From Escherichia phage CY1, in sequence record OM937123.1: 39,173 nucleotides of DNA; one strand, 5' to 3'. Below the pieces are notes generated by a model. It was given only the letters and a program-made list of their open reading frames with translations, was not told the origin of the DNA and ran no database searches. This document shows, in pieces, positions 6,997 to 39,113 of the stretch; positions within the stretch are counted from its first letter, which is position 1; every line of letters begins with the position of its first letter. The position numbers were made by a program, and so were the translations under genes.

Positions 6997-7256
6997 CGCA
7001 GATGGACTTAGAGAAGTTCCTCTTAATGCTAGATACTGAACGTGCTCGACTCATGCTGCAAGACCTGCGGGATGACTCTAAGCGTTCACCTCAGCTCTAC
7101 AACGCCATTGAGAAGCTGCTGGCTCGTCACAACTTCGTGTTAAGCAAGGTGTCTGTTGACGAGAAGACGCTCGCTGATATGGAGGCCCTGAACGCAGAGT
7201 ACGATAAGGTGCTTTCAGCGACTGAGGATAATGACACAGGGTATGGTGTTCAATAA
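6993..7256 (+). CDS. gp18: Terminase small subunit (gp18-like), 87 aa
   Basis: Synteny (after the holin, before the spanins), size, and SD GGAGGTGG. Confidence 0.75.
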   Translation: MTQMDLEKFLLMLDTERARLMLQDLRDDSKRSPQLYNAIEKLLARHNFVLSKVSVDEKTLADMEALNAEYDKVLSATEDNDTGYGVQ

Positions 7257-7260
7257 GTGT

Positions 7261-7305
7261 TAGACTCAAGGTCATTACTATATGTAGGGGCCTTTATGGT
7301 TAACA
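7261..7305 (+). ncRNA. RNase III-type processing hairpin (R18.5-like)
   Basis: Conserved element tagACTCAAGGTCAt...GGCCTTTATGgtta, which recurs at 15911 and 22804 and resembles the T7 R1.1 site as I remember it. Confidence 0.5.
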
Positions 7306-7357
7306 CTAACTAGTGGAGGCGACTCTACGTGAAATCTGATAAACCGGGAGGGCAACT

Positions 7358-7807
7358 ATGCTCGAATTTTTAAAGAGAGCGGCTCCGTGGTTACTTGCAG
7401 CAGTGATGTTTGCTGGTGGCTACCACACCGCTAACAATAAGTGGGAGGCTAAGGTCAATGCAGAATACACCTCGAATCTTAAGGCATCGGAGGATACAAG
7501 ACTTGCTGTCCAAGCCGAAGTCAACAAAGTGTCCAAACGGTTTCAGGACGAAATGTCCTCGCTGGAAGGCAGCACTGATAGGATTATTGCTGACCTTCAG
7601 TCTGACAATAAGCGGTTGCGCATCAGAGTCAAACCAACGAGTGGAACCACGCAAAGTGACGGTCGATGCGTCATTGATGGTTACGCCGAACTTGACGAAC
7701 GAGATGCTAAACGTCTTATCACCATCGGACTAAAAGGGGACGCTTGGATTAAAGCACTACAGGATACTGTGAGATCCTTACAGCAAGATAAGGAGGTGAC
7801 GCATTGA
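7358..7807 (+). CDS. gp18.5: i-spanin (Rz-like, gp18.5 homologue), 149 aa
   Basis: N-terminal membrane anchor ([12 protein letters not shown]) followed by a coiled-coil-like periplasmic region; SD GGGAGGG; sits between small and large terminase genes as in T7. Confidence 0.8.
7458..7733 (+). CDS. gp18.7: o-spanin (Rz1-like lipoprotein, gp18.7 analogue) embedded in the +1 frame of the i-spanin gene; start codon uncertain
   Basis: The embedded ORF encodes a lipoprotein signal and lipobox ([14 protein letters not shown]|C). The listed ORF opens at 7410; the ATG at 7458 is my chosen start. Confidence 0.55.
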   Translation: MQNTPRILRHRRIQDLLSKPKSTKCPNGFRTKCPRWKAALIGLLLTFSLTISGCASESNQRVEPRKVTVDASLMVTPNLTNEMLNVLSPSD

Positions 7808-9567
7808 GTAAAGACTTAGTGGCGCGTCAGGCGCTAATGACTGCCCGTATGAAGGCAGACTTCGTGTTCTTCCTGTTCGTTCTATGGAAAGCTCTGTCAC
7901 TCCCAGTCCCGACTCGCTGTCAGATTGACATGGCGAAGAAACTATCGGCTGGGGACAACAGGCGTTTCATCCTACAGGCGTTCCGTGGTATCGGGAAGTC
8001 CTTCATTACGTGTGCCTTCGTGGTCTGGAAGCTATGGAATAACCCAGACTTGAAGTTCATGATTGTGTCGGCCTCAAAGGAACGAGCCGATGCGAACTCC
8101 ATCTTCATCAAGCGAATCATCGACCTCATGCCACAGCTTCAGGAACTCAAACCTAAGCAGGGACAGCGAGATGCGGTTATCAGCTTTGACGTTGGGCCAG
8201 CCAAGCCCGACCACTCACCTTCGGTTAAGTCCGTTGGTATCACTGGTCAGCTGACTGGTAGTCGTGCAGACATCCTGATTGCCGATGACGTTGAGGTTCC
8301 TAACAACTCTGCTACTCAGGCTGCGCGAGACCGTCTGTCAGAGCTTGTGAAAGAGTTCGACGCTATCCTGAAGCCGGGAGGTACAATCATCTATCTGGGT
8401 ACTCCTCAGAACGAGATGACCCTGTATCGTGAGCTTGAAGGTCGTGGGTATACCACTACTATCTGGCCAGCTCGTTATCCACGCGACAGGAAGGACTGGC
8501 AGTCTTACGGCGACCGTCTGGCTCCTATGCTTCAGGCAGAACTTGAAGAGGACCCTGAGTCCTTCTACTGGCGTCCGACCGATGAGGTACGATTTGATGA
8601 TACTGACCTGAAGGAACGTGAGCTGTCCTATGGTAAAGCTGGCTTCGCTCTACAGTTCATGCTTAACCCGAACCTTAGTGATGCCGAGAAGTACCCTCTG
8701 AAGCTCCGTGACCTTATCGTAGCAGACTTGGACCCAGCGTCCAGCCCAATGGTCTACCAATGGTTGCCGAACCCTCAGAACAAGCGTGAGGACGTTCCTA
8801 ACGTTGGACTCATGGGTGACTCGTACCACACGTATCAGACTGTAGGTTCTTCCTTCAGTTCGTACACCCAGAAGATTCTGGTCATTGACCCTAGTGGTCG
8901 TGGTAAGGATGAAACTGGTTATGCTGTACTGTATCAGCTAAACGGCTACATCTTCGCTATGGAAGTTGGAGGTATGCGTGGTGGTTATGAGGACTCTACG
9001 CTGGAATCACTGGCTAAGATTGGTCGTAAGTGGAAGGTCAACGAATACGTCATTGAGGGTAACTTCGGGGATGGTATGTACCTTGAGTTATTCAAGCCTG
9101 TAGCGGCCCGTATTCATCCTGCTGCTGTAACTGAAGTGAAGAGTAAGGGTCAGAAAGAACTCCGCATCTGTGACGTTCTGGAGCCTATCATGGGGTCTCA
9201 CCGACTTATCGTCAACGCTGCTGCTATCGTCCAAGACTACCAGTCGGCCTCTGATAAGGATGGTGTTCGTAACCCTATCTACTCTCTCTTCTACCAGATG
9301 ACACGTATCTCTCGTGAACGTGGAGCCTTGGCACACGATGACCGACTTGATGCGCTGGCTATCGGTGTACAGTTCTTCGTTGAGTCTATGGCTAAGGATG
9401 CCAACAAAGGCGAACGTGAAGTCACTGAGGAATGGCTGGAGGAACAGATGGAGAACCCACGGAAAGGCTTCGAGTCCATCCACACTGAGTTCTGGGACAA
9501 TGGGGTCCGGGTAACTCACGATACGGACGACGAGCTTGGACTAGGGGCTTACGTTGCGTTCCACTAG
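7804..9567 (+). CDS. gp19: Terminase large subunit (gp19 homologue), 587 aa, TTG start
   Basis: Strong similarity to T7 gp19 ([84 protein letters not shown]). TTG at 7804 follows AGGAGGT with 6-nt spacing. Confidence 0.95.
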
Positions 9568-9576
9568 CTGAATGAA

Positions 9577-9625
9577 TAACTATAGGTGAAATCTGCATGA
9601 ATACGCAGTTAGTAACCTATAGTTA
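9577..9625. other. Perfect 10-bp inverted repeat (TAACTATAGG / CCTATAGTTA) just after the terminase stop
   Basis: Arms at 9577-9586 and 9616-9625 are exact reverse complements; each arm resembles a half phage promoter. Confidence 0.5.
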
Positions 9626-9661
9626 CTACCAGTCTAACCTACTGTTTTACAAGGAGTTTGG

Positions 9662-9684
9662 ACTTAACTATCACTATAGGAAAG
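9662..9684 (+). promoter_or_regulatory. Phage RNAP promoter (phiOR-like, before gene 19.5), +1 near 9679
   Basis: TTAACTATCACTATAGGAAAG matches the in-window consensus. Confidence 0.8.
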
Positions 9685-9864
9685 ACCCCCGGTTACTTAT
9701 AGTATTACTGTAGTGAATATACATATGCAGACTTTATGCAAGACCTTAGGAGGCAGACTCCGAGTTCTTACCTAAGGCTTGCACCGATGGAAGGAGGGTG
9801 ATATTAATCATAATCCCTCCAATACAGATAGTCACCGACCATAGATACAGGAGGTATGTAGCAT

Positions 9865-10023
9865 ATGGCAAAGACCAAAGCTGTACTTAAAGCTCTGGCG
9901 ACCAATCGAGCTACATACAGGTTTCTTGCTGCTGTTCTACTTGCTGCTGGCGTTACTGCTGGAAGTCAGTGGGTCGGGTGGGTCGAGACTCTCGTATGCT
10001 CTCTGGTGTCTCAGTGTAATTAA
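9865..10023 (+). CDS. gp19.5: gp19.5-like small protein, 52 aa (below the ORF-track cutoff)
   Basis: My translation MAKTKAVLKALATNRATYRFLAAVLLAAGVTAGSQWVGWVETLVCSLVSQCN resembles T7 gp19.5 (..RVTYRFL..). SD AGGAGGT upstream. Confidence 0.65.
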   Translation: MAKTKAVLKALATNRATYRFLAAVLLAAGVTAGSQWVGWVETLVCSLVSQCN

Positions 10024-10186
10024 CGCAATCATGGTAACGATTCATGAGCGGAAGACCTAAGGTCAGTACGTGGATAAATACTCACTCTACTGACCTTAGC
10101 TACTGTAGTCAAGGACTTTAGGTAACACCTTAATAGAAGCTCACTTAGGGTCATCCTACTTATTGGTCTATCCTAGTGTCGCCTGA

Positions 10187-10224
10187 CCTACGGTCCTTGA
10201 CCTACAGTAGCTGCCACCTACAGT
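10187..10224. repeat. Array of three short direct repeats (CCTAC[A/G]GT) near the genome end
   Basis: Copies at 10187, 10201 and 10217. Analogous to the CCTAAAG-type arrays flanking the T7 terminal repetition. Confidence 0.6.
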
Positions 10225-10485
10225 CTTCGATGAGTTTTGGACCAAAAGTTTGAGACCACATCTCATAGTTCAAGAACCTCAAGTCTCCCCATAGGCCCTC
10301 TTTCAGTCCAGACAAAGGCCCTACCATAGACCTTCGGTCTATACCTCTAGTCTATCATAGGGTTGGACCGACTGTCAATACCTAAAGTCAACGATTGGTC
10401 ATGACTATTGGTGGTGGTGGAGACGATAGGTTGGGACTATTGGTCTGTCTCCAGTCTCTATCTGTATAACCATAGGTCCCATCAA

Positions 10486-10583
10486 CCTACAGTCTAACAA
10501 CCTACAGTCACCGACCATCGGTAGAGCCATTACCTACAGTCAAAGACCTACAGTCTAACGACACTAAGCTATCGACCTACAGT
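10486..10583. repeat. Array of five short direct repeats (ACCTACAGT-type) near the genome end
   Basis: Copies at 10486, 10501, 10533, 10547 and 10576, spaced 14-32 bp apart. Confidence 0.65.
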
Positions 10584-10936
10584 TTACAGAGACCTTAGGT
10601 CTAGTCTCAAAGGTTATCACATCCGGTCAGTTTATCAGTCAGAGACCATAGCTGACTAAAGTTATTAGTTAGTGTCTTTCTAACTGGACTTTCTATTATC
10701 CATAGTCAGGACTTAAAGTCAATCATCTGGAGTCATCCTTATATAGTCACTGGACTACTGTATAAATTACCATGATAAATAGTTGTTGACACTTTAGGTC
10801 TAACTATGGCTTAATAGCTTCCGTCAACACGACACGGCAACAACCGGATAGTGAAGACGCCGGGTCAGACCGGATAAGTAGTCAGCCTGTAAGACATACG
10901 AAAACCAGGCATCTGACAGGAAGTTGAAATAAACGC

Positions 10937-10966
10937 TTGACAAGATGTAACGACTTAAAGTAGTAT
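10937..10966 (+). promoter_or_regulatory. Host sigma70-type early promoter (T7 A3-like): TTGACA, 18-bp spacer, TAGTAT
   Basis: TTGACA at 10937-10942 and TAGTAT at 10961-10966. The surrounding sequence resembles the T7 A2/A3 region (TTGACAACATGAAGTAA...). Confidence 0.55.
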
Positions 10967-11037
10967 GTACCACATAGAAACAACGGTGAGTCCCAACACT
11001 GAAACGGGATAGCACGGCGACGACAGCCAATGCGAAT

Positions 11038-11140
11038 GCTCTTTAACAATCTGGATAAACTCTTAATGTGCGCCGATAGCGACTAACTACAGGGTCTTTG
11101 AGTCTACATCTGAAGGCCCTGACTGATAGTCACTAACAAC
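11038..11140 (+). ncRNA. Probable RNase III processing region upstream of gene 0.3 (R0.3-like)
   Basis: CTCTTTAACAATCTGGATAAAC closely matches the T7 R0.3 leader (GCTCTTTAACAATCTGGTAAATAGC) as I remember it. The structure was not folded. Confidence 0.4.
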
Positions 11141-11155
11141 TGAGAGGATATAACT

Positions 11156-11665
11156 ATGGAACGTAACGCTAACGCTTATTACGAACTGGTAGCTGCAACT
11201 GTGAAAGAATTCAACGAGCGCATCCAGTACGACCAACTGACTCAAGATGACGACTACAGCGATGCACTGCATGAAGTCGTAGGCGGTCAGGTTCCGCACT
11301 ATTACCACGAGATTTTCACTGTAATGGCTGCTGATGGTATAGGCCACGAGTTTGAGGACTCTGGGCTGATGCCTGAGACCAAGGACGTAACGTGTATACT
11401 GCAAGCTCGCATCTATGAGGCGCTGTATAACGATGTGCTTAACAGCTCGGATGTTGTCTGGTTTGAGGCTGAAGAGAGCGACGAAGAGGATGAATATTGG
11501 GTAGTTGACGCTAAAACAGGCGCAATAATTAAGCAAGCTGTGTCACTTGATGTCGCTACTGCATGTGCCAAAGATCACTATGCGATAGGTCGCCACCTGA
11601 AGGTCGAGGACATCAACGATAAAGTAGTGTTCGACCCTGCGGCTGAAGAGGGGGGCTGCGAATAA
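11156..11665 (+). CDS. ocr: Ocr-like DNA-mimic anti-restriction protein (gene 0.3 homologue) with a ~55-aa C-terminal extension, 169 aa
   Basis: [43 protein letters not shown] matches T7 Ocr ([43 protein letters not shown]); acidic tract follows. T7 Ocr is about 117 aa. Confidence 0.85.
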   Translation: [169 protein letters not shown]

Positions 11666-11822: not shown

Positions 11823-11948
11823 ATGTACCAGATAACTTATAGCAGTGAACAGGCGTTCTATGATGGGTGCTACGAGATGATGAAGCGAGGGGCTTGCTAC
11901 GTGGCGAATCACCATGCGTTAACCATAACGCTGACAGGTGGATACTGA
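11823..11948 (+). CDS. Hypothetical early protein, 41 aa
   Basis: ATG 3 nt after the previous stop; + strand; my own translation. Confidence 0.25.
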   Translation: MYQITYSSEQAFYDGCYEMMKRGACYVANHHALTITLTGGY

Positions 11949-12019
11949 GTGAGAGACGAGAGGTCATCTAACTGATAGGTGGCCTCAAAGATTATCACTT
12001 AAATTGATAGGAGTTAACT

Positions 12020-15891: not shown

Positions 15892-15914
15892 CCTAAACTA
15901 TCACTATAGGATTA
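15892..15914 (+). promoter_or_regulatory. Phage RNAP promoter (phi1.1-like), +1 near 15909
   Basis: CCTAAACTATCACTATAGGATTAG matches the consensus. Confidence 0.8.
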
Positions 15915-15958
15915 GACTCAAGGTCATGACTCAAAGTCGTGGCCTTCATGATTAACCC
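15911..15958 (+). ncRNA. RNase III-type processing hairpin (R1.1-like)
   Basis: ttagACTCAAGGTCAtgactcaaagtcGTGGCCTTcATGATTaac matches the recurring element and resembles T7 R1.1. Confidence 0.55.
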
Positions 15959-15990
15959 TAACATAACGTAAACTACTGGAGATTTAACAA

Positions 15991-20644: not shown

Positions 20645-20860
20645 ATGATTAAACTTATCGAATTTCTTGGTCGTCTGGCGGTGCGTGGTTATCGTCGTGC
20701 TGCGGTACTGGAACGAAAGGTAGAAAAGAAGACTGCTGATGGTGCGGCTGATGCTGCTGCTCTGGCTGACAAGCTGACCATCGCGTCACTGGAAGCTGGC
20801 ATGAAGGCACGTCAAGCTGAAACCAAAGCTGACCAGTTGGCTCAGTTCTTCAAAGCCTAA
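20645..20860 (+). CDS. Hypothetical coiled-coil protein, 71 aa (gene 3.8 position)
   Basis: SD AAGGAGAA before ATG 20645; same frame as listed ORF 20555-20860. Confidence 0.5.
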   Translation: MIKLIEFLGRLAVRGYRRAAVLERKVEKKTADGAADAAALADKLTIASLEAGMKARQAETKADQLAQFFKA

Positions 20861-20878
20861 ACTATCACCTTAGGGATG
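20856..20878 (+). promoter_or_regulatory. Degenerate phage-promoter-like sequence upstream of gene 4 (two mismatches in the core)
   Basis: CCTAAACTATCACCTTAGGGATGG; the -4/-5 positions differ from the consensus, so activity is uncertain. Confidence 0.35.
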
Positions 20879-20925
20879 GGACAATGAGTCCTGTCCCTTT
20901 GTTCGCATTTGTGATTAAGGAGTGA

Positions 20926-22640: not shown

Positions 22641-22805
22641 TTGCTAAGAAAACTTAAAGCTCGATACCATCGGTTCATGTACAAATGGTGGAGCGATGAA
22701 GCAACCTGCCTGTCAAACATTCTAGGAGACCAGAGGTTCGACTCTAAGGCATGGAAGAAGGCTAACCGTAAGTTCATGTACCACTTCTTGCGTACAGACT
22801 TCTAG
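22641..22805 (+). CDS. Hypothetical small basic protein, 54 aa, TTG start (gene 4.x position)
   Basis: AGGAGG at 22629-22634 precedes TTG 22641; same frame as listed ORF 22608-22805. Confidence 0.4.
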   Translation: MLRKLKARYHRFMYKWWSDEATCLSNILGDQRFDSKAWKKANRKFMYHFLRTDF

Positions 22806-22853
22806 GTCTAGACTCAAGGTCATTCACATCGAGTGGCCTTTATGATTAGACTA
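22804..22853 (+). ncRNA. RNase III-type processing hairpin (R4.7-like)
   Basis: tagACTCAAGGTCAttcacatcgaGTGGCCTTTATGATTagac, the third copy of the conserved element. Confidence 0.55.
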
Positions 22854-22868
22854 AACGGAGGATTAACC

Positions 22869-26968: not shown

Positions 26969-27029
26969 TTAGGACCTAAGATATGACTATAAGATAGACT
27001 TTAGTCTTAACTTAAAGAGGAGATTCAAG

Positions 27030-32952: not shown

Positions 32953-35310
32953 ATGCCACTAATTACTCAATCAATCAAGAACCTTAAAGGTGGCATTAGC
33001 CAACAGCCTGATATACTGAGGTTCTCAGACCAAGGCGAGGCACAGGTTAACTGCTGGTCATCCGAGAGTGATGGCCTCCAGAAGCGCCCACCTACAGTCT
33101 TCAAGCGACGTCTTAACATCGACGTTGGGAGCAACCCTAAGGTCCACCTGATTAACCGTGACGAGCATGAGCAGTATTACATCGTGTTCAACGGGTCCAA
33201 CATTCAGGTAGTTGACTTGAGTGGCAATCAATACTCAGTGTCAGGTGCGGTAGACTACGTTAACTCCTCCAACCCACGAGATGACATCCGTGTCGTTACC
33301 GTGGCAGACTATACGTTCGTCGTTAACCGTAAGGTTGTCGTCAAAGGTGGAAGCGAGAAGTCACACTATGGTTATAACCGCAAAGCACGAGCTTTAATTA
33401 ACCTGCGTGGGGGACAGTATGGTCGCACCCTTAAGGTAGGGATCAATGGAGGCGTTAAGGTTTCGCATAAGTTGCCAGCAGGTAATGATGCCGAGAATGA
33501 CCCTCCTAAGGTTGATGCTCAGGCTATCGGTGCAGCTCTGAGAGACCTTCTTGTTGCTGCTTACCCTACCTTCACGTTCGACCTTGGGTCTGGCTTCCTG
33601 TTAATCACTGCCCCTTCAGGGACTGACATTAACTCAGTGGAGACGGAGGATGGCTACGCTAACCAGTTAATCAGCCCAGTCCTCGACACGGTGCAAACAA
33701 TCTCTAAGTTGCCTCTTGCGGCTCCAAATGGGTACATCATTAAGATTCAAGGTGAGACCAACAGTAGCGCCGATGAATATTACGTGATGTATGACTCCAA
33801 CACTAAGACGTGGAAGGAGACAGTGGAGCCGGGAGTTGTCACTGGGTTCGATAACACCACAATGCCACACGCTCTGGTACGACAATCTGATGGCTCCTTT
33901 GAGTTCAAGACTCTGGACTGGTCTAAGCGTGGTGCTGGTAATGATGACACAAACCCTATGCCTAGCTTCGTGGATGCTACGATTAACGATGTGTTCTTCT
34001 ACAGGAACAGGCTAGGGTTCTTGTCAGGAGAGAACGTAATCATGAGCCGTTCAGCCAGCTACTTTGCGTTCTTCCCTAAGAGTGTGGCGACACTGAGTGA
34101 CGATGACCCTATTGACGTAGCTGTAAGTCACCCTCGAATCTCAATCCTTAAGTATGCCGTTCCGTTTAGCGAGCAGCTACTACTTTGGTCGGATGAGGTT
34201 CAGTTCGTGATGACAAGCTCTGGGGTCCTTACCTCGAAGTCTATCCAGCTTGATGTAGGCTCAGAGTTTGCCCTAGGTGACAATGCCAGACCGTTCGCTG
34301 TAGGACGCTCAGTCTTCTTCTCAGCGCCTCGTGGGTCCTTCACCAGCATTAAGCGATACTTCGCTGTGGCAGATGTGTCTGACGTGAAGGATGCCGATGA
34401 TACCACTGGACACGTACTGTCCTATATCCCTAACGGGGTGTTTGACATTCAAGGTACAGGTACTGAGAACTACATCTGCGTCAACTCTACAGGTGCATAC
34501 AACCGAATCTACATCTACAAGTTCTTGTTTAAGGACGGCATACAGCTTCAAGCCTCTTGGTCACACTGGGAGTTCCCTAAAGATGATAAGATTCTGGCGT
34601 CTGCTTCTATTGGCTCTACCATGTTCATCGTTCGTCAGCACCAAGGCGGAGTGGACCTTGAGCACCTTAAGTTCATCAAGGAGGCAACTGACTTCCCGTC
34701 AGAGCCATATAGACTACACATTGACTCCAAGGTGTCTATGGTAATACCAATTGGCTCATACGACGCTGACACCTATAAGACTACGGTTGACATTGGTTCT
34801 GCTTATGGTGGAAACGCTCCGTCTCCCGGTCGGTACTATCTGATTGACAGTCAGGGTGCTTATGTTGACCTTGGGAACTTGAACAGTATCTCTACTGTGG
34901 CTATACTAAATGGCGATTGGTCAGGACGCACAGTGTTCATCGGACGGTCTTATCTGATGTCCTACAAGTTTTCACGGTTCCTGATCAAGATTGAAGACGA
35001 GAGTGGCACTCAGTCTGAAGACACTGGACGCCTACAACTTCGTCGGGCTTGGGTCAACTACAAGGACACTGGTGCTCTGAGACTCATTGTCAGAAACGGT
35101 GAGCGGGAGTTCGTGAACACCTTTAATGGGTACACCCTTGGTCAGCAAACCATCGGTACTACAAACATTGGTGACGGGCAGTATCGCTTCGCTATGAATG
35201 GTAACGCATTAACCACGAGTCTAACCTTAGAGTCCGACTATCCTACCCCAGTGTCCATCATTGGGTGTGGCTGGGAGGCGTCATACGCTAAGAAAGCTCG
35301 TTCAGTCTAA
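32953..35310 (+). CDS. gp12: Tail tubular protein B (gene 12 homologue), 785 aa
   Basis: Size and synteny; N-terminal MPLITQSIKNLKGGISQQPDILRFSDQGE is typical of T7-like gp12; SD TAAGGAGGG. Confidence 0.93.
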   Translation: MPLITQSIKNLKGGISQQPDILRFSDQGEAQVNCWSSESDGLQKRPPTVFKRRLNIDVGSNPKVHLINRDEHEQYYIVFNGSNIQVVDLSGNQYSVSGAVDYVNSSNPRDDIRVVTVADYTFVVNRKVVVKGGSEKSHYGYNRKARALINLRGGQYGRTLKVGINGGVKVSHKLPAGNDAENDPPKVDAQAIGAALRDLLVAAYPTFTFDLGSGFLLITAPSGTDINSVETEDGYANQLISPVLDTVQTISKLPLAAPNGYIIKIQGETNSSADEYYVMYDSNTKTWKETVEPGVVTGFDNTTMPHALVRQSDGSFEFKTLDWSKRGAGNDDTNPMPSFVDATINDVFFYRNRLGFLSGENVIMSRSASYFAFFPKSVATLSDDDPIDVAVSHPRISILKYAVPFSEQLLLWSDEVQFVMTSSGVLTSKSIQLDVGSEFALGDNARPFAVGRSVFFSAPRGSFTSIKRYFAVADVSDVKDADDTTGHVLSYIPNGVFDIQGTGTENYICVNSTGAYNRIYIYKFLFKDGIQLQASWSHWEFPKDDKILASASIGSTMFIVRQHQGGVDLEHLKFIKEATDFPSEPYRLHIDSKVSMVIPIGSYDADTYKTTVDIGSAYGGNAPSPGRYYLIDSQGAYVDLGNLNSISTVAILNGDWSGRTVFIGRSYLMSYKFSRFLIKIEDESGTQSEDTGRLQLRRAWVNYKDTGALRLIVRNGEREFVNTFNGYTLGQQTIGTTNIGDGQYRFAMNGNALTTSLTLESDYPTPVSIIGCGWEASYAKKARSV

Positions 35311-35334
35311 CTTATTGAAGGGCCTATAGATTTA

Positions 35335-35357
35335 CCTTAACTATCACTATAGGGACT
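35335..35357 (+). promoter_or_regulatory. Phage RNAP promoter (phi13-like), +1 near 35352, embedded in a 10-bp perfect inverted repeat
   Basis: CCTTAACTATCACTATAGGGACT, flanked by GGGCCTATAG (35320-35329) and CTATAGGCCC (35356-35365). Confidence 0.8.
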
Positions 35358-35386
35358 ATAGGCCCTTAAGGTTATAAGGAGACTTT

Positions 35387-36264: not shown

Positions 36265-36819
36265 ATGTCTGTAGCTGGTGCCACTATGTCCGCATCCCAA
36301 CAGGCCAAGGCTGAAGGAGCAGCAATTGACGCTCAGAACCGACAGGCTCAGGAAATGGTTAAGCAGATGAACTACTCTGACGCCAACCTGAAGATGCAAG
36401 AGCGCGACCTGAAGGAGCAGCAGATGGCTGAACTGACAGAGACCACGCTCAACGGTATCCGCAATCAGGGTATGGTCCGAGCTGCGGTGGCTGAGTCCGG
36501 TCTGGAAGGTAACTCTATGGATAGGATTGAACGTCAGGTCGCAGGAGATACAGTCAAGGAGCGAGCAGGGATTACCGAAAGTTACAACCGCGACTATGCG
36601 GCTATCTTCGGGAACCGTATCGCCAACATTGAGAACACAAAGTCTGCTATCCGTGGTCAAGGTAAGATCATCAAGACCAGCCCACTAGCTCATGCACTTA
36701 ATGTTGCTAACGCCGGGATTCAAGGTTACGCCGCTGGTAAGTCAATGTCTGGGACTTCAGGCTCTGGTGGTGCTGCACCAATTAGTGCTGCTAAAGGCAC
36801 ACCTACAGGTCATAGCTAA
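36265..36819 (+). CDS. gp14: Internal virion protein B (gene 14 homologue), 184 aa
   Basis: GMVRAAVAESGLEGNSMDRIERQ and YNRDYAAIFG resemble T7 gp14 (GSIRAAIGESMLEGSSMDRIKR, YRRDYQAIFA); synteny. Confidence 0.88.
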   Translation: MSVAGATMSASQQAKAEGAAIDAQNRQAQEMVKQMNYSDANLKMQERDLKEQQMAELTETTLNGIRNQGMVRAAVAESGLEGNSMDRIERQVAGDTVKERAGITESYNRDYAAIFGNRIANIENTKSAIRGQGKIIKTSPLAHALNVANAGIQGYAAGKSMSGTSGSGGAAPISAAKGTPTGHS

Positions 36820-36830
36820 GAGGAGGACTA

Positions 36831-39113
36831 ATGGCTAGTAATATTCAATCAGCTCTGGCTAATCGGACTATGGGTCGTGGCAGAGCGCCGGGTAAAACTA
36901 TCGCCGTCAACTATCAAGCAGCCAACGTTCAGGCTCCGACTGGGGACTCCGGGCTGGCTCGTGCATTGACTAACTTCGTTGAGTCTGGGACAGGATTGTA
37001 CAAGCAGTTCAAGGACGAGGAGAAGACACGGGCCGACGAGCGGTCTAACGAGATTATCCGTAAGCTGACACCTCAGCAAAGACGTGAGGCTATCCAGAAC
37101 GGCACATTGCTGTATCAGGATGACCCTTACGCTATGGAAGCACTTAGAGTCAAGACTGGTCGTAATGCTGCCTTTGCTGTAGACGACGAGATTACCGTTA
37201 AGATTCAGAACGGTGAGTTCCGTACACGTCAAGACATGGAAGAGTATCGCCACCAGCGACTTCAGGATGCAGCCAAGTCCTATGCTGAAGAGGCGGGTAT
37301 TAACCCTACCGACGAGTTCTTCCAGCGTGGATTCAACGATAACATCACGGACCGAAACATCGCTATCTACGGGTCCTTCAATAAGTATTTCAGCAAGCAG
37401 TCTGAAGAGACAGCAATGTTGAACACTCGTATTGAGCTGAACTCGTTCCTTAACGATGGGGACCTGATGCGTTCGCCTGAGTCTGGAAAGACCTTCATGG
37501 CCTACCTTCGGGATGGACTGACGACTGCTGCTATACCTTCGGACCAGAGAGCACGAGAGGTCATCACCCAGACGGTCCGTGACGCAATCCAGAAGTCAGG
37601 AGGCTCAAACTTCCTACAGCAAGTCCGTGGCGAGCGTATCACCCTTAATGGTGTTGACGCTACCATCGAAGAGATTGTAGGACCTGACGTCTTCAATGCT
37701 GCTATGGTTGAGGCCCAAGGTACTGAGTATAAACTGGTGGCTAAGTATCAGGAAGACTTGGCGTTAGGCGTTCAGTCTGCGATTCTTCAGGATGACCCAA
37801 CCATTGGTCTGGCCCAGATTCAGAAACTCAAGGAGCAGAACAACCTGCTTCAACCGGGTGAAGAACTCACGCCTCAGCGTCAGATGCTTATTAATGCCGA
37901 AGCCAGCTTGCTTGAAGCGGTCAAGCGTAAGTCTGCTGAACAGGCGAAGGAGAACACTAAGTTAATCCAGACCCAGAACAAGCAACTGGTCATTGACCAA
38001 GTGTATCAGCGACGTCTGGCTGGGGACAATGTGTCCACCAACTATGAGGACCTTCCGGTCTCTGAAGCTACAGGAGAGTTCAAGCGTTCAGACATGAACA
38101 ACTATGCGTCTGCCAAGCTACAGCAGATTGACCAGATGGACATCCCTGAGGCTGCTAAGGACGCTCAGAAGGTGGCATTGTTGAGGGCTGACACTAACAA
38201 TGGTCCTTTCCGTAATGCCTTCCAGACGCTTACTCAGGACGCTGCTGGTGAGTGGCAAGCTGCGGTCATCCGTGGGCAGTACGACCCAGACAAGATGCAA
38301 CGCTTCGAATCTCTTCGTCGTTCCTACACTCAGGACCCTTCAAGTTTTGCTGCTCTGTATCCTGACCAAGCTCAGTTGTTCTCTACGTTCGACCAGATGG
38401 ACAAGATGGGTCTGGACCCTCAGACGATGATTGAAGCTGATAAGCAAGCTGCAAGTCAAAGCCGTGAGATGCGCATGGAGTCAGACAAGGCGTGGCAGGA
38501 GTTGAAGAACGACTCCAAGAACACCCAGTTGTCTCGTCTCCCAACGTCTCTGGATGCAAGTGCTCGTAAGGTCTGGGACTCATGGTACTATCGTACAGGT
38601 AACGCTGACGCTGCAACTCAGCAGACTCAACGCTGGCTGAATGAAAATACCGTAACGTTCCAGTCTGAAGGTTCTGACGGTAAGTCCATTGGCATGGTGT
38701 CAAAGCACCAGCTTATGGTAGGGGATAACCCAGAGTCGTGGCAGGTTGGTCGAGACATTATCGACACCGCTCGTAAGCAGCTCATTAAGGCCAACCCTTG
38801 GGTAGTGAACTCTCAGTTGTCCGTTGTTGAACAGAACGGCTCTATCTTCCTCCAAGACGCTACAGGGACTATTCGTATTCGCTACGATAAAGAACTTGTA
38901 GGTAAACTCTACCGCGAACAACAGCAGAAGGCACAAGATGCCGCATACGCTAAGGCAGAACGTGAAGCTAACAAGCGAGCGCGTATCGTCGGGACTAAAG
39001 CTGCTGGTGACAAACGTCGAGCTGACCGAGAGGCCAACATCGAGAAGCGCGGTGGGATGTATAATGACGTCTCATTGGAGGGTATCGCAAACGTACTAAT
39101 CGGTAAGGAGTAA
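36831..39113 (+). CDS. gp15: Internal virion protein C (gene 15 homologue), 760 aa
   Basis: Size (T7 gp15 is about 747 aa), synteny directly before gp16, SD AGAGGAGG; its last 22 codons are duplicated at window positions 1-67. Confidence 0.9.
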   Translation: MASNIQSALANRTMGRGRAPGKTIAVNYQAANVQAPTGDSGLARALTNFVESGTGLYKQFKDEEKTRADERSNEIIRKLTPQQRREAIQNGTLLYQDDPYAMEALRVKTGRNAAFAVDDEITVKIQNGEFRTRQDMEEYRHQRLQDAAKSYAEEAGINPTDEFFQRGFNDNITDRNIAIYGSFNKYFSKQSEETAMLNTRIELNSFLNDGDLMRSPESGKTFMAYLRDGLTTAAIPSDQRAREVITQTVRDAIQKSGGSNFLQQVRGERITLNGVDATIEEIVGPDVFNAAMVEAQGTEYKLVAKYQEDLALGVQSAILQDDPTIGLAQIQKLKEQNNLLQPGEELTPQRQMLINAEASLLEAVKRKSAEQAKENTKLIQTQNKQLVIDQVYQRRLAGDNVSTNYEDLPVSEATGEFKRSDMNNYASAKLQQIDQMDIPEAAKDAQKVALLRADTNNGPFRNAFQTLTQDAAGEWQAAVIRGQYDPDKMQRFESLRRSYTQDPSSFAALYPDQAQLFSTFDQMDKMGLDPQTMIEADKQAASQSREMRMESDKAWQELKNDSKNTQLSRLPTSLDASARKVWDSWYYRTGNADAATQQTQRWLNENTVTFQSEGSDGKSIGMVSKHQLMVGDNPESWQVGRDIIDTARKQLIKANPWVVNSQLSVVEQNGSIFLQDATGTIRIRYDKELVGKLYREQQQKAQDAAYAKAEREANKRARIVGTKAAGDKRRADREANIEKRGGMYNDVSLEGIANVLIGKE

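Follow-up and report, generated by a model that had tools for sequence, protein, structure and literature searches.

What is the inverted repeat that lies between the large terminase gene and the phiOR promoter of Escherichia phage CY1, and does it act as DNA or as RNA? The window, that is, the whole stretch of 39,173 nt that was analyzed, is a circularly permuted whole genome of a Kayfunavirus (K1F/EcoDS1-like, T7-group). Its region 9300–10100 shows 80–98% identity to 224 phage records, nearly all of them Kayfunavirus (K1F, EcoDS1, CR44b, and others), and because the terminal repeat is found as a single collapsed copy inside the window, at about 10261–10459, the contig is a circular permutation of the linear genome. 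Gene coordinates, obtained by mapping the curated EcoDS1 record onto the window, place the gene 19 (large terminase) ORF at 7804–9567 (EcoDS1 gp19, 36641–38404), with its TAG stop at 9565–9567 of the + strand as the 5′ boundary of the element. The phiOR promoter, a neighbor that lies outside the hairpin, maps from the EcoDS1 annotation to 9663–9685 of the same strand (+1 at 9679; 34.6 bits), and gene 19.5 maps to 9865–10023. Gene 19 and phiOR are 95 nt apart, and the inverted repeat falls in this gap. Its 5′ arm starts 9 nt past the gene 19 stop, so that the element belongs to the 3′ UTR of gene 19, the last large late gene, and its 3′ arm lies 37 nt from the upstream edge of phiOR and 54 nt from the phiOR +1; the original prediction had put the arms directly after the gp19 stop and about 50 bp before phiOR, and this position holds.

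The arms had been described as exact reverse complements separated by 29 nt, which is correct for TAACTATAGG (9577–9586) and CCTATAGTTA (9616–9625). Pairing runs one base further inward, giving perfect 11-bp arms, TAACTATAGGT (9577–9587) and ACCTATAGTTA (9615–9625), around a 27-nt spacer. Taken alone, the inverted repeat is not significant: dinucleotide-shuffled windows yield on average 0.49 perfect 11-bp inverted repeats with arms ≤60 nt apart, 28% of these windows have one or more, and the real window has three such loci. The sense RNA of the element folds with −22.2 kcal/mol and z = −4.8, a stability reached by 0 of 200 shuffles, and the DNA fold has z = −3.4; in the window genome the antisense RNA folds equally well (z = −4.9).

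The predicted structure comprises, on the + strand, an 11-bp main helix, a GAA/AGUA internal loop, a 4–6-bp apical stem, and an 8-nt loop. The 5′ arm of the main helix (RNA UAACUAUAGGU, 9577–9587) is the perfect complement of the 3′ arm (RNA ACCUAUAGUUA, 9615–9625), with A-U accounting for 7 of the 11 pairs, and the two arms covary in relatives. Above this helix, the GAA strand of the internal loop (9588–9590) faces the AGUA strand (9611–9614). The 5′ half of the apical stem, CUGC (9593–9596), pairs with the 3′ half, GCAG (9605–9608), both in the minimum free energy fold and in the RNAalifold consensus, and relatives retain this stem, with a U-A pair replaced by U·G in six sequences. The loop that caps it, AUGAAUAC (9597–9604), is present in the folds and is largely conserved in sequence among the hairpin types designated A–D below.

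Several extensions of this model were considered and set aside. A second hairpin at 9630–9664 (AGUCUAA/UUUGGACU) appears in some folds and was dropped, as it is devoid of covariation and lost in SFPH2-type relatives. A lower stem that would include the stop codon (9565–9570 with 9630–9636) is 82% paired with one compensatory pair and was left out, and a long-range interaction in which the phiOR leader would pair with the 5′ arm and loop was rejected, its segments being neither collinear nor conserved. An ORF that begins in the apical loop (9597–9713, 38 aa, annotated as hypothetical in K1F) was judged to be non-coding, since its ATG is ATT in L012, L095, and L097 and the frame ends after four codons in SFPH2-type relatives. 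The apical stem loosely resembles a type I-F CRISPR repeat, a lead that was dropped as unsupported. When the window was searched with a model of the element, the element itself was the only hit; the next match, at 35308–35378, is a promoter-flanking repeat with E = 0.5.

The homologous region was gathered from 37 loci (21 distinct sequences) and four more GenBank genomes, the relatives being drawn from IMG/VR, metagenomes, and GenBank. Among the relatives collected, five hairpin types occupy the same position. Type A, with arms TAACTATAGGT/ACCTATAGTTA, is that of the window, K1F, EcoDS1, and Peacock; type B, with arms TAACTATGGGT/ACCCATAGTTA, is found in IMM-002-like phages; and type C, with arms TACCTACGCA/TGCG(T)TAGGTA and one bulged base, in SFPH2, SH4, and MBBL139. 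Type D (GW1 and Enterobacter phages) pairs GTACCG with CGGTAC and forms further pairs, and type E (LET1 and L021) has arms GGTTAGTCAGAGATAC/GTATCTCGACTAACC. Three GenBank records carry unexpected host names, OR786095 (Staphylococcus phage MBBL139), PV615262 (Acinetobacter phage vB_Aba_01KA), and PQ520054 (Enterococcus phage IME_EF3); all are Kayfunavirus and near-identical to coliphages in this region, and their Gram-positive or Acinetobacter hosts are probably mis-assignments or contaminants.

Covariation was evaluated in an alignment of 17 distinct Kayfunavirus sequences, limited to types A–C. The 11-bp helix is 97.9% paired in this alignment, two-sided compensatory changes occur at 6 of its 11 pairs, and the observed covariation score is reached by 0 of 500 shuffles. 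When the partner strand was slid by 1–3 columns as a control, pairing was 16–41%. RNAalifold, run with no structure supplied, returns the same main helix and apical stem, and one helix pair passes through A-U, G·U, and G-C among the relatives. The compensatory changes stem from few lineages, mainly those of SFPH2/MBBL139 type and IMM-002 type, so that the covariation support is good and not overwhelming. Conservation with covariation indicates that the repeat is under selection, and a chance repeat is thereby ruled out. Conservation in related genomes, which the original prediction had proposed as a check, is thus observed: the hairpin is kept, with covarying pairs, in most of Kayfunavirus.

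The pattern of substitutions also reports on the strand. Nearly all one-sided changes produce G·U wobbles in the sense RNA (U·G from C-G or U-A, and G·U from A-U), and the non-Watson–Crick cells of both helices comprise 22 G·U on the + strand vs 3 A·C. The + strand fold is better than the − strand fold in 13 of the 17 variants, with a mean gain of 2.7 kcal/mol. This wobble asymmetry points to a single-stranded sense molecule, the late transcript, and makes a cruciform or a symmetric protein-binding site less plausible. The stem-loop in the gene 19 3′ UTR is therefore a conserved, sense-strand element specific to Kayfunavirus, and it is likely to be a functional RNA structure.

The spacer is not a passive loop; its interior is constrained in sequence. 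Between the window and SFPH2-type relatives, 24 of the 27 apical nucleotides are identical (89%), compared with 6/11 in the 5′ arm, 5/12 in the 3′ arm, and 3/14 in the 3′ flank. The GAA and AGUA strands, flanked by U9587-A9615 and A9591-U9610, are each invariant in 17/17 sequences (alignment A2). The core of the sarcin-ricin/bulged-G motif is an AGUA opposite a GAA, forming sheared A·G, U·A, bulged-G, and A·A interactions, and a U·A flanking pair is among its listed variants (PMC8450098). The internal loop resembles this motif, also known as eukaryal loop E: AGUA stands opposite GAA between Watson–Crick pairs, and the same non-canonical pairs could form. Most known examples of the motif come from rRNA and other large structured RNAs; the match here is at the level of sequence alone. 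If the motif does form, with its S-turn fold and G-U-A base triple, the main helix, internal loop, and apical stem would stack into a continuous helix of ~20 bp capped by the 8-nt loop. Two of the five hairpin types, D (GW1) and E (LET1), do not contain GAA/AGUA.

The distribution of the element has clear limits. A search with the element model returned no homologues in T7, T3, or more distant Autographiviridae, and only weak matches to type D. The 99-nt gap between gene 19 and phiOR in T7 has no significant structure (z = −0.29), and only small hairpins follow gene 19 in T7 and T3 (z = −1.9 in T3). Within Kayfunavirus, a 543-nt HNH endonuclease gene replaces the whole interval from the gene 19 stop to phiOR in phiYIO1-1 and PE3-1 (both at 732–1274 of their loci, L116 and L117, respectively), and Ro45lw (728–1270 of L118), leaving no hairpin. 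A different HNH gene, of 417 nt, replaces the 5′ half of the hairpin in CR44b (530–946 of L114), and a CR44b-like arrangement is implied by the hit table for vB_STmST19_KE14. The insertions correspond to window positions 9568–9655. Since these phages are without all or part of the hairpin, the element is not essential. In CR44b the 3′ half is changed and forms a new 9-bp hairpin, GGTAGTTAC/GTGACTACC, which suggests that some structure is favored at the site. At least five Kayfunavirus genomes carry one of two different HNH genes (417 or 543 nt) in the gap, placed exactly between the gene 19 stop and phiOR. Mobile endonuclease genes have landed here repeatedly, which marks the gap as an insertion hot-spot and a natural, tolerated insertion point.

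In terms of function, the most likely role of the hairpin, which we put at about an even chance, is that of a 3′-end protecting or processing element of the late mRNA. The inverted repeat would be the DNA image of a structured stem-loop in sense-strand late RNA, carried by every late transcript that reads through gene 19 and not by those started at phiOR. Its action would be post-transcriptional: the stem-loop may block 3′-to-5′ exonucleases, may be the recognition site of a nuclease or an RNA-binding protein, or both. The outcome would be a defined, stable 3′ end for the gene 19 message, which would thereby be set apart from read-through RNA over phiOR, gene 19.5, and the terminal repeat. The late RNAs of T7-group phages are polycistronic and processed at hairpins, and the stability of an mRNA can be controlled by cleavage inside such a hairpin (PMC6938266 and references therein). 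A 3′-end role fits this reliance of the group on hairpin processing of polycistronic RNA. The original prediction had named a processing hairpin for late transcripts among its options, and this is the one best supported by the data; the late-RNA hairpin stands, on the strength of covariation and sense-strand G·U pairs, and the promoter half-sites and polymerase binding coupled to it do not.

Structure after the terminase gene is common in the wider family. The 100 nt that follow the terminase stop have z < −2 in 54% of 72 Autographiviridae loci vs 10% of 144 coding controls, with mean z values of −2.3 and −0.3, respectively (Mann–Whitney p = 6e-13, indicative only because the loci are not independent). 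These post-terminase structures include both textbook terminators and plain hairpins. The literature searched offered no usable mapping of transcript ends for Kayfunavirus or for T7 gene 19.

The hairpin shares with generic protective stem-loops in the 3′ UTRs of bacterial and phage mRNAs (PNPase/RNase II barriers) its location a few nucleotides past a stop codon, a stable helix, pairing that outlasts sequence, and its dispensability in some relatives. Generic barriers, however, need neither an invariant internal loop nor a conserved apical region, and the hairpin has both; a plain exonuclease barrier does not explain these sequence-constrained parts. Two further observations weigh against a 3′-end role. 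The element is not universal, as the HNH-carrying phages are without it and T7 has no significant structure at the site, and on read-through RNA a downstream hairpin, at 10057–10099, would meet exonucleases first.

The hairpin is kept through compensatory evolution across most of Kayfunavirus, yet none of the curated records of EcoDS1, K1F, CR44b, and Peacock annotates it, and it is absent from Rfam (region 9400–10500 has no match to any Rfam family, CRISPR-repeat families included, at E ≤ 10). Kayfunavirus is a genus widely isolated for therapy. If the terminase message owes its 3′ end or its stability to the hairpin, the hairpin would be part of the late gene-expression program, to be preserved or deliberately altered when such phages are engineered.

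A specific version of this 3′-end explanation is cleavage by host RNase III at a non-canonical site, in which the predicted ~20-bp stacked helix would be cut and gene 19 RNA split from downstream RNA. The hairpin has much in common with the RNase III hairpins of T7 and T3 (R0.3 … R18.5), which are likewise sense-strand intergenic hairpins in polycistronic phage transcripts, which leave after cleavage a 3′ structure that stabilizes the upstream message, and some of which (R6.5 and R13) hold promoter sequence in or between their arms. T7-group phages use such hairpins between late genes, in T3 the annotated R6.5 and R13 stems form over a long range, spanning promoters and enclosing large apical regions, and the helix length read from the predicted structure would be compatible with cleavage. 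A covariance model was built from 16 canonical sites: the seven of the T3 annotation, seven from T7, and two from the window. With a cut-off of E ≤ 5e-4, it identifies five window sites, 7255–7309, 11077–11136, 11947–12001, 15907–15961, and 22803–22855 (26–62 bits), and even at E ≤ 10 it does not find 9577–9625 in the window, which rules out a canonical site. The conserved sequence and structure of canonical T7-group sites (lower stem, ACUCAAGGUC...GUGGCCUU upper stem, and UAUGAUU 3′ side), and with them the ACUCAAGGUC...GUGGCCUUUAUGAUU of the T7/T3 family, are missing from the hairpin. The T3 annotation lists no RNase III site after gene 19. Non-canonical cleavage is unlikely. The five window candidates are unannotated in EcoDS1, a record that lists no RNase III sites.

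We judge it unlikely that the hairpin is a dedicated protein-recognition RNA, in which a phage or host protein would bind the GAA/AGUA loop and apical region and regulate terminase expression or link late transcription to packaging. The division of constraint favors this possibility, with GAA and AGUA invariant while the flanking helix covaries and with the apical 27 nt 89% identical across clades when arms and flanks are 21–55% identical; so does the match to the sarcin-ricin core, which is a recurrent protein-binding module (PMC8450098). On the other hand, the motif is assigned at the level of sequence, the GW1-type and LET1-type hairpins do without GAA/AGUA, and the HNH-carrying phages do without the element. 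A more detailed form, in which a sarcin-ricin-like S-turn on the covarying helix would be read by a phage protein (e.g., a terminase subunit) or a host protein, providing feedback on terminase synthesis or a tie between the late transcript and the packaging machinery at the concatemer junction nearby, is distinctly improbable. If true, such a protein-binding hairpin would be a regulatory RNA of a kind undescribed in T7-group phages.

The original prediction also listed a terminator. If the phage RNA polymerase terminated or paused at the hairpin, late-gene read-through into phiOR and the terminal repeat would be lowered. The hairpin does lie where the last late operon ends; post-terminase hairpins of some other Autographiviridae (e.g., L016 and L073) are textbook stems plus U-runs, and the LET1-type stem ends 3 nt before UGUUUU. 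The hairpin resembles the class I terminator Tphi in being a stem-loop in late RNA right after a highly expressed gene. Tphi of this group, as annotated in EcoDS1, is however a 17-bp GC-rich stem followed directly by U6, whereas the hairpin has an AU-rich stem, a large structured spacer, and, in place of an immediate U-run, the tail CUACCAGUCUAACC (after the 11-bp stem, with its 7/11 A-U pairs, the tail reads CUACCAGUCU). A scan of 9000–11500 returned no terminator-like site. A class II pause or termination site, with a conserved ATCTGTT-type heptamer and a U-run, is likewise not found at the hairpin. The only class II-like strings nearby are ATCTGCA and TACTGTTTT; both differ from the site annotated in EcoDS1, CTATCTGT, and both vary among relatives. 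We consider a terminator or pause site very improbable.

The remaining suggestion of the original prediction was that the arms are promoter half-sites forming a polymerase pause or binding element. Ten strong phage promoters, sharing the consensus (A/C)CT(A/T)AACTATCACTATAGG, are present in the window. Of the 12 copies of the string ACTATAGG (1.15 expected), nine belong to strong promoters, two form the hairpin arms, and one is located downstream of the promoter with +1 at 35352. The likeness of each arm to the initiation half of the promoter is real, at 9/10 to positions −8..+2 (TCACTATAGG) with A for C at −7 as the mismatch. Upstream of it, nothing promoter-like is present (upstream-half scores of −7.8 and −17.2 bits). 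Scored with a matrix built from the ten promoters of the window (−17..+6), the arms reach 1.4 bits (rank 59) and −6.9 bits (rank 809) vs 28.5–35.3 bits for the real promoters. Because these full-matrix scores are far below those of real sites despite the initiation-half likeness, the arms are not promoters, and a functional or cryptic promoter is ruled out. Furthermore, ACTATAGG is missing from the arms of SFPH2/SH4/MBBL139-type, GW1-type, and LET1-type relatives, which keep a hairpin of different sequence, and no class II pause motif is conserved at the site. The likeness of the arms to a promoter thus appears, from these comparisons, to be a clade-specific coincidence that is not needed for function. 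It carries a caution for sequence reading: an element constrained as structural RNA can, in one lineage, come to look strikingly like a promoter core by accident.

A DNA-level element, whether a pair of promoter-derived half-sites for polymerase binding or a folded DNA structure (cruciform or single-strand hairpin) serving a phiOR-linked replication origin or concatemer processing, is extremely improbable: closeness to phiOR in an AT-rich region with several degenerate promoter-core copies, the 9/10 match of both arms, and the presence of GCACTATAGACC at a similar place in T7 speak for it, and against it stand the matrix scores of the arms (1.4 and −6.9 bits vs 28–35 bits for real promoters), the loss of the likeness both from three other clades and from the T3 counterpart of the T7 site, a one-strand wobble asymmetry that is unexpected for a cruciform or a symmetric protein site, the bulge in one arm in some clades, the viability of phages that are without the element, and the fact that the position of a packaging-type hairpin is taken by another repeat, 183 bp left of the terminal repeat (~190 bp in T7).

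This other repeat, at 10057–10099, is the one that fits the link to the concatemer junction that the original prediction had drawn for the hairpin. It is a perfect 12-bp inverted repeat, CTAAGGTCAGTA/TACTGACCTTAG, that follows gene 19.5, with its center 183 bp left of the terminal repeat. In T7, an inverted repeat at 39568–39608 also follows gene 19.5, ~190 bp left of the terminal repeat, and we take it to be the proposed “hairpin end” repeat of concatemer processing. A T7 “hairpin end” inverted repeat was reportedly described in concatemer processing by Chung, Nardone and Hinkle in 1990. The hairpin at 9577–9625 shares with it the nature of an inverted repeat and a location in the right-end region near phiOR; it lies, however, upstream of phiOR and ~640 bp left of the terminal repeat (10261–10459), outside the interval between gene 19.5 and the terminal repeat, and the window counterpart of the T7 repeat by position is 10057–10099. 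The outer stem of 10057–10099 is invariant in sequence in all relatives examined, and its apical part occurs in three unrelated forms. An invariant outer stem is the opposite of what is seen in the hairpin at 9577–9625 and suggests a different function, one that is read from the sequence. The RNase III model does not find 10057–10099, despite its AAGGUC...GACCUU look. At the right edge of the window terminal repeat, the concatemer-junction motif CTATCTGT is present at 10457–10464; the terminal repeat itself carries a 21-bp insertion relative to EcoDS1.

Further sequence features were observed around the element. At the end of gene 19, TAGCTGAATGAATAA (9565–9579) provides stops in all three frames (TAG, TGA, TGA, and TAA), and its AATGAAT core is conserved across hairpin types. 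The 11-mer CTG(A/C)ATGAATA has exactly two copies in the window, one just 5′ of the helix (9568–9578) and one in the apical stem-loop (9593–9603); T7 (L105) has one copy, at 39263–39273, 34 nt downstream of the phiOR start. Downstream of phiOR, degenerate copies of the promoter core are found at 9690–9720 in both orientations, with genome-wide matrix ranks of 13 and 15, and an imperfect inverted repeat of the promoter core is formed near phiOR by 9671–9682 and 9705–9716 (83%). T7 has the similar strings ACTATATAG and ACTTATAGAG after its phiOR.

Elsewhere in the window, two weaker promoter-like sites score between the strong promoters and the background, one at 20857–20879 (+1 at 20873; CCTAAACTATCACCTTAGGGATG; 24.3 bits) and one at about 26976–26998 (+1 at 26992; CCTAAGATATGACTATAAGATAG; 16.4 bits). 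The promoter with +1 at 35352, which is probably phi13, is followed by a second ACTATAGG at 35355. It is bracketed by a perfect 12-bp inverted repeat, AAGGGCCTATAG/CTATAGGCCCTT (35318–35329/35356–35367), and this promoter-bracketing repeat (35318–35367) resembles R6.5 and R13 of T3, which are annotated RNase III stems that span promoters.
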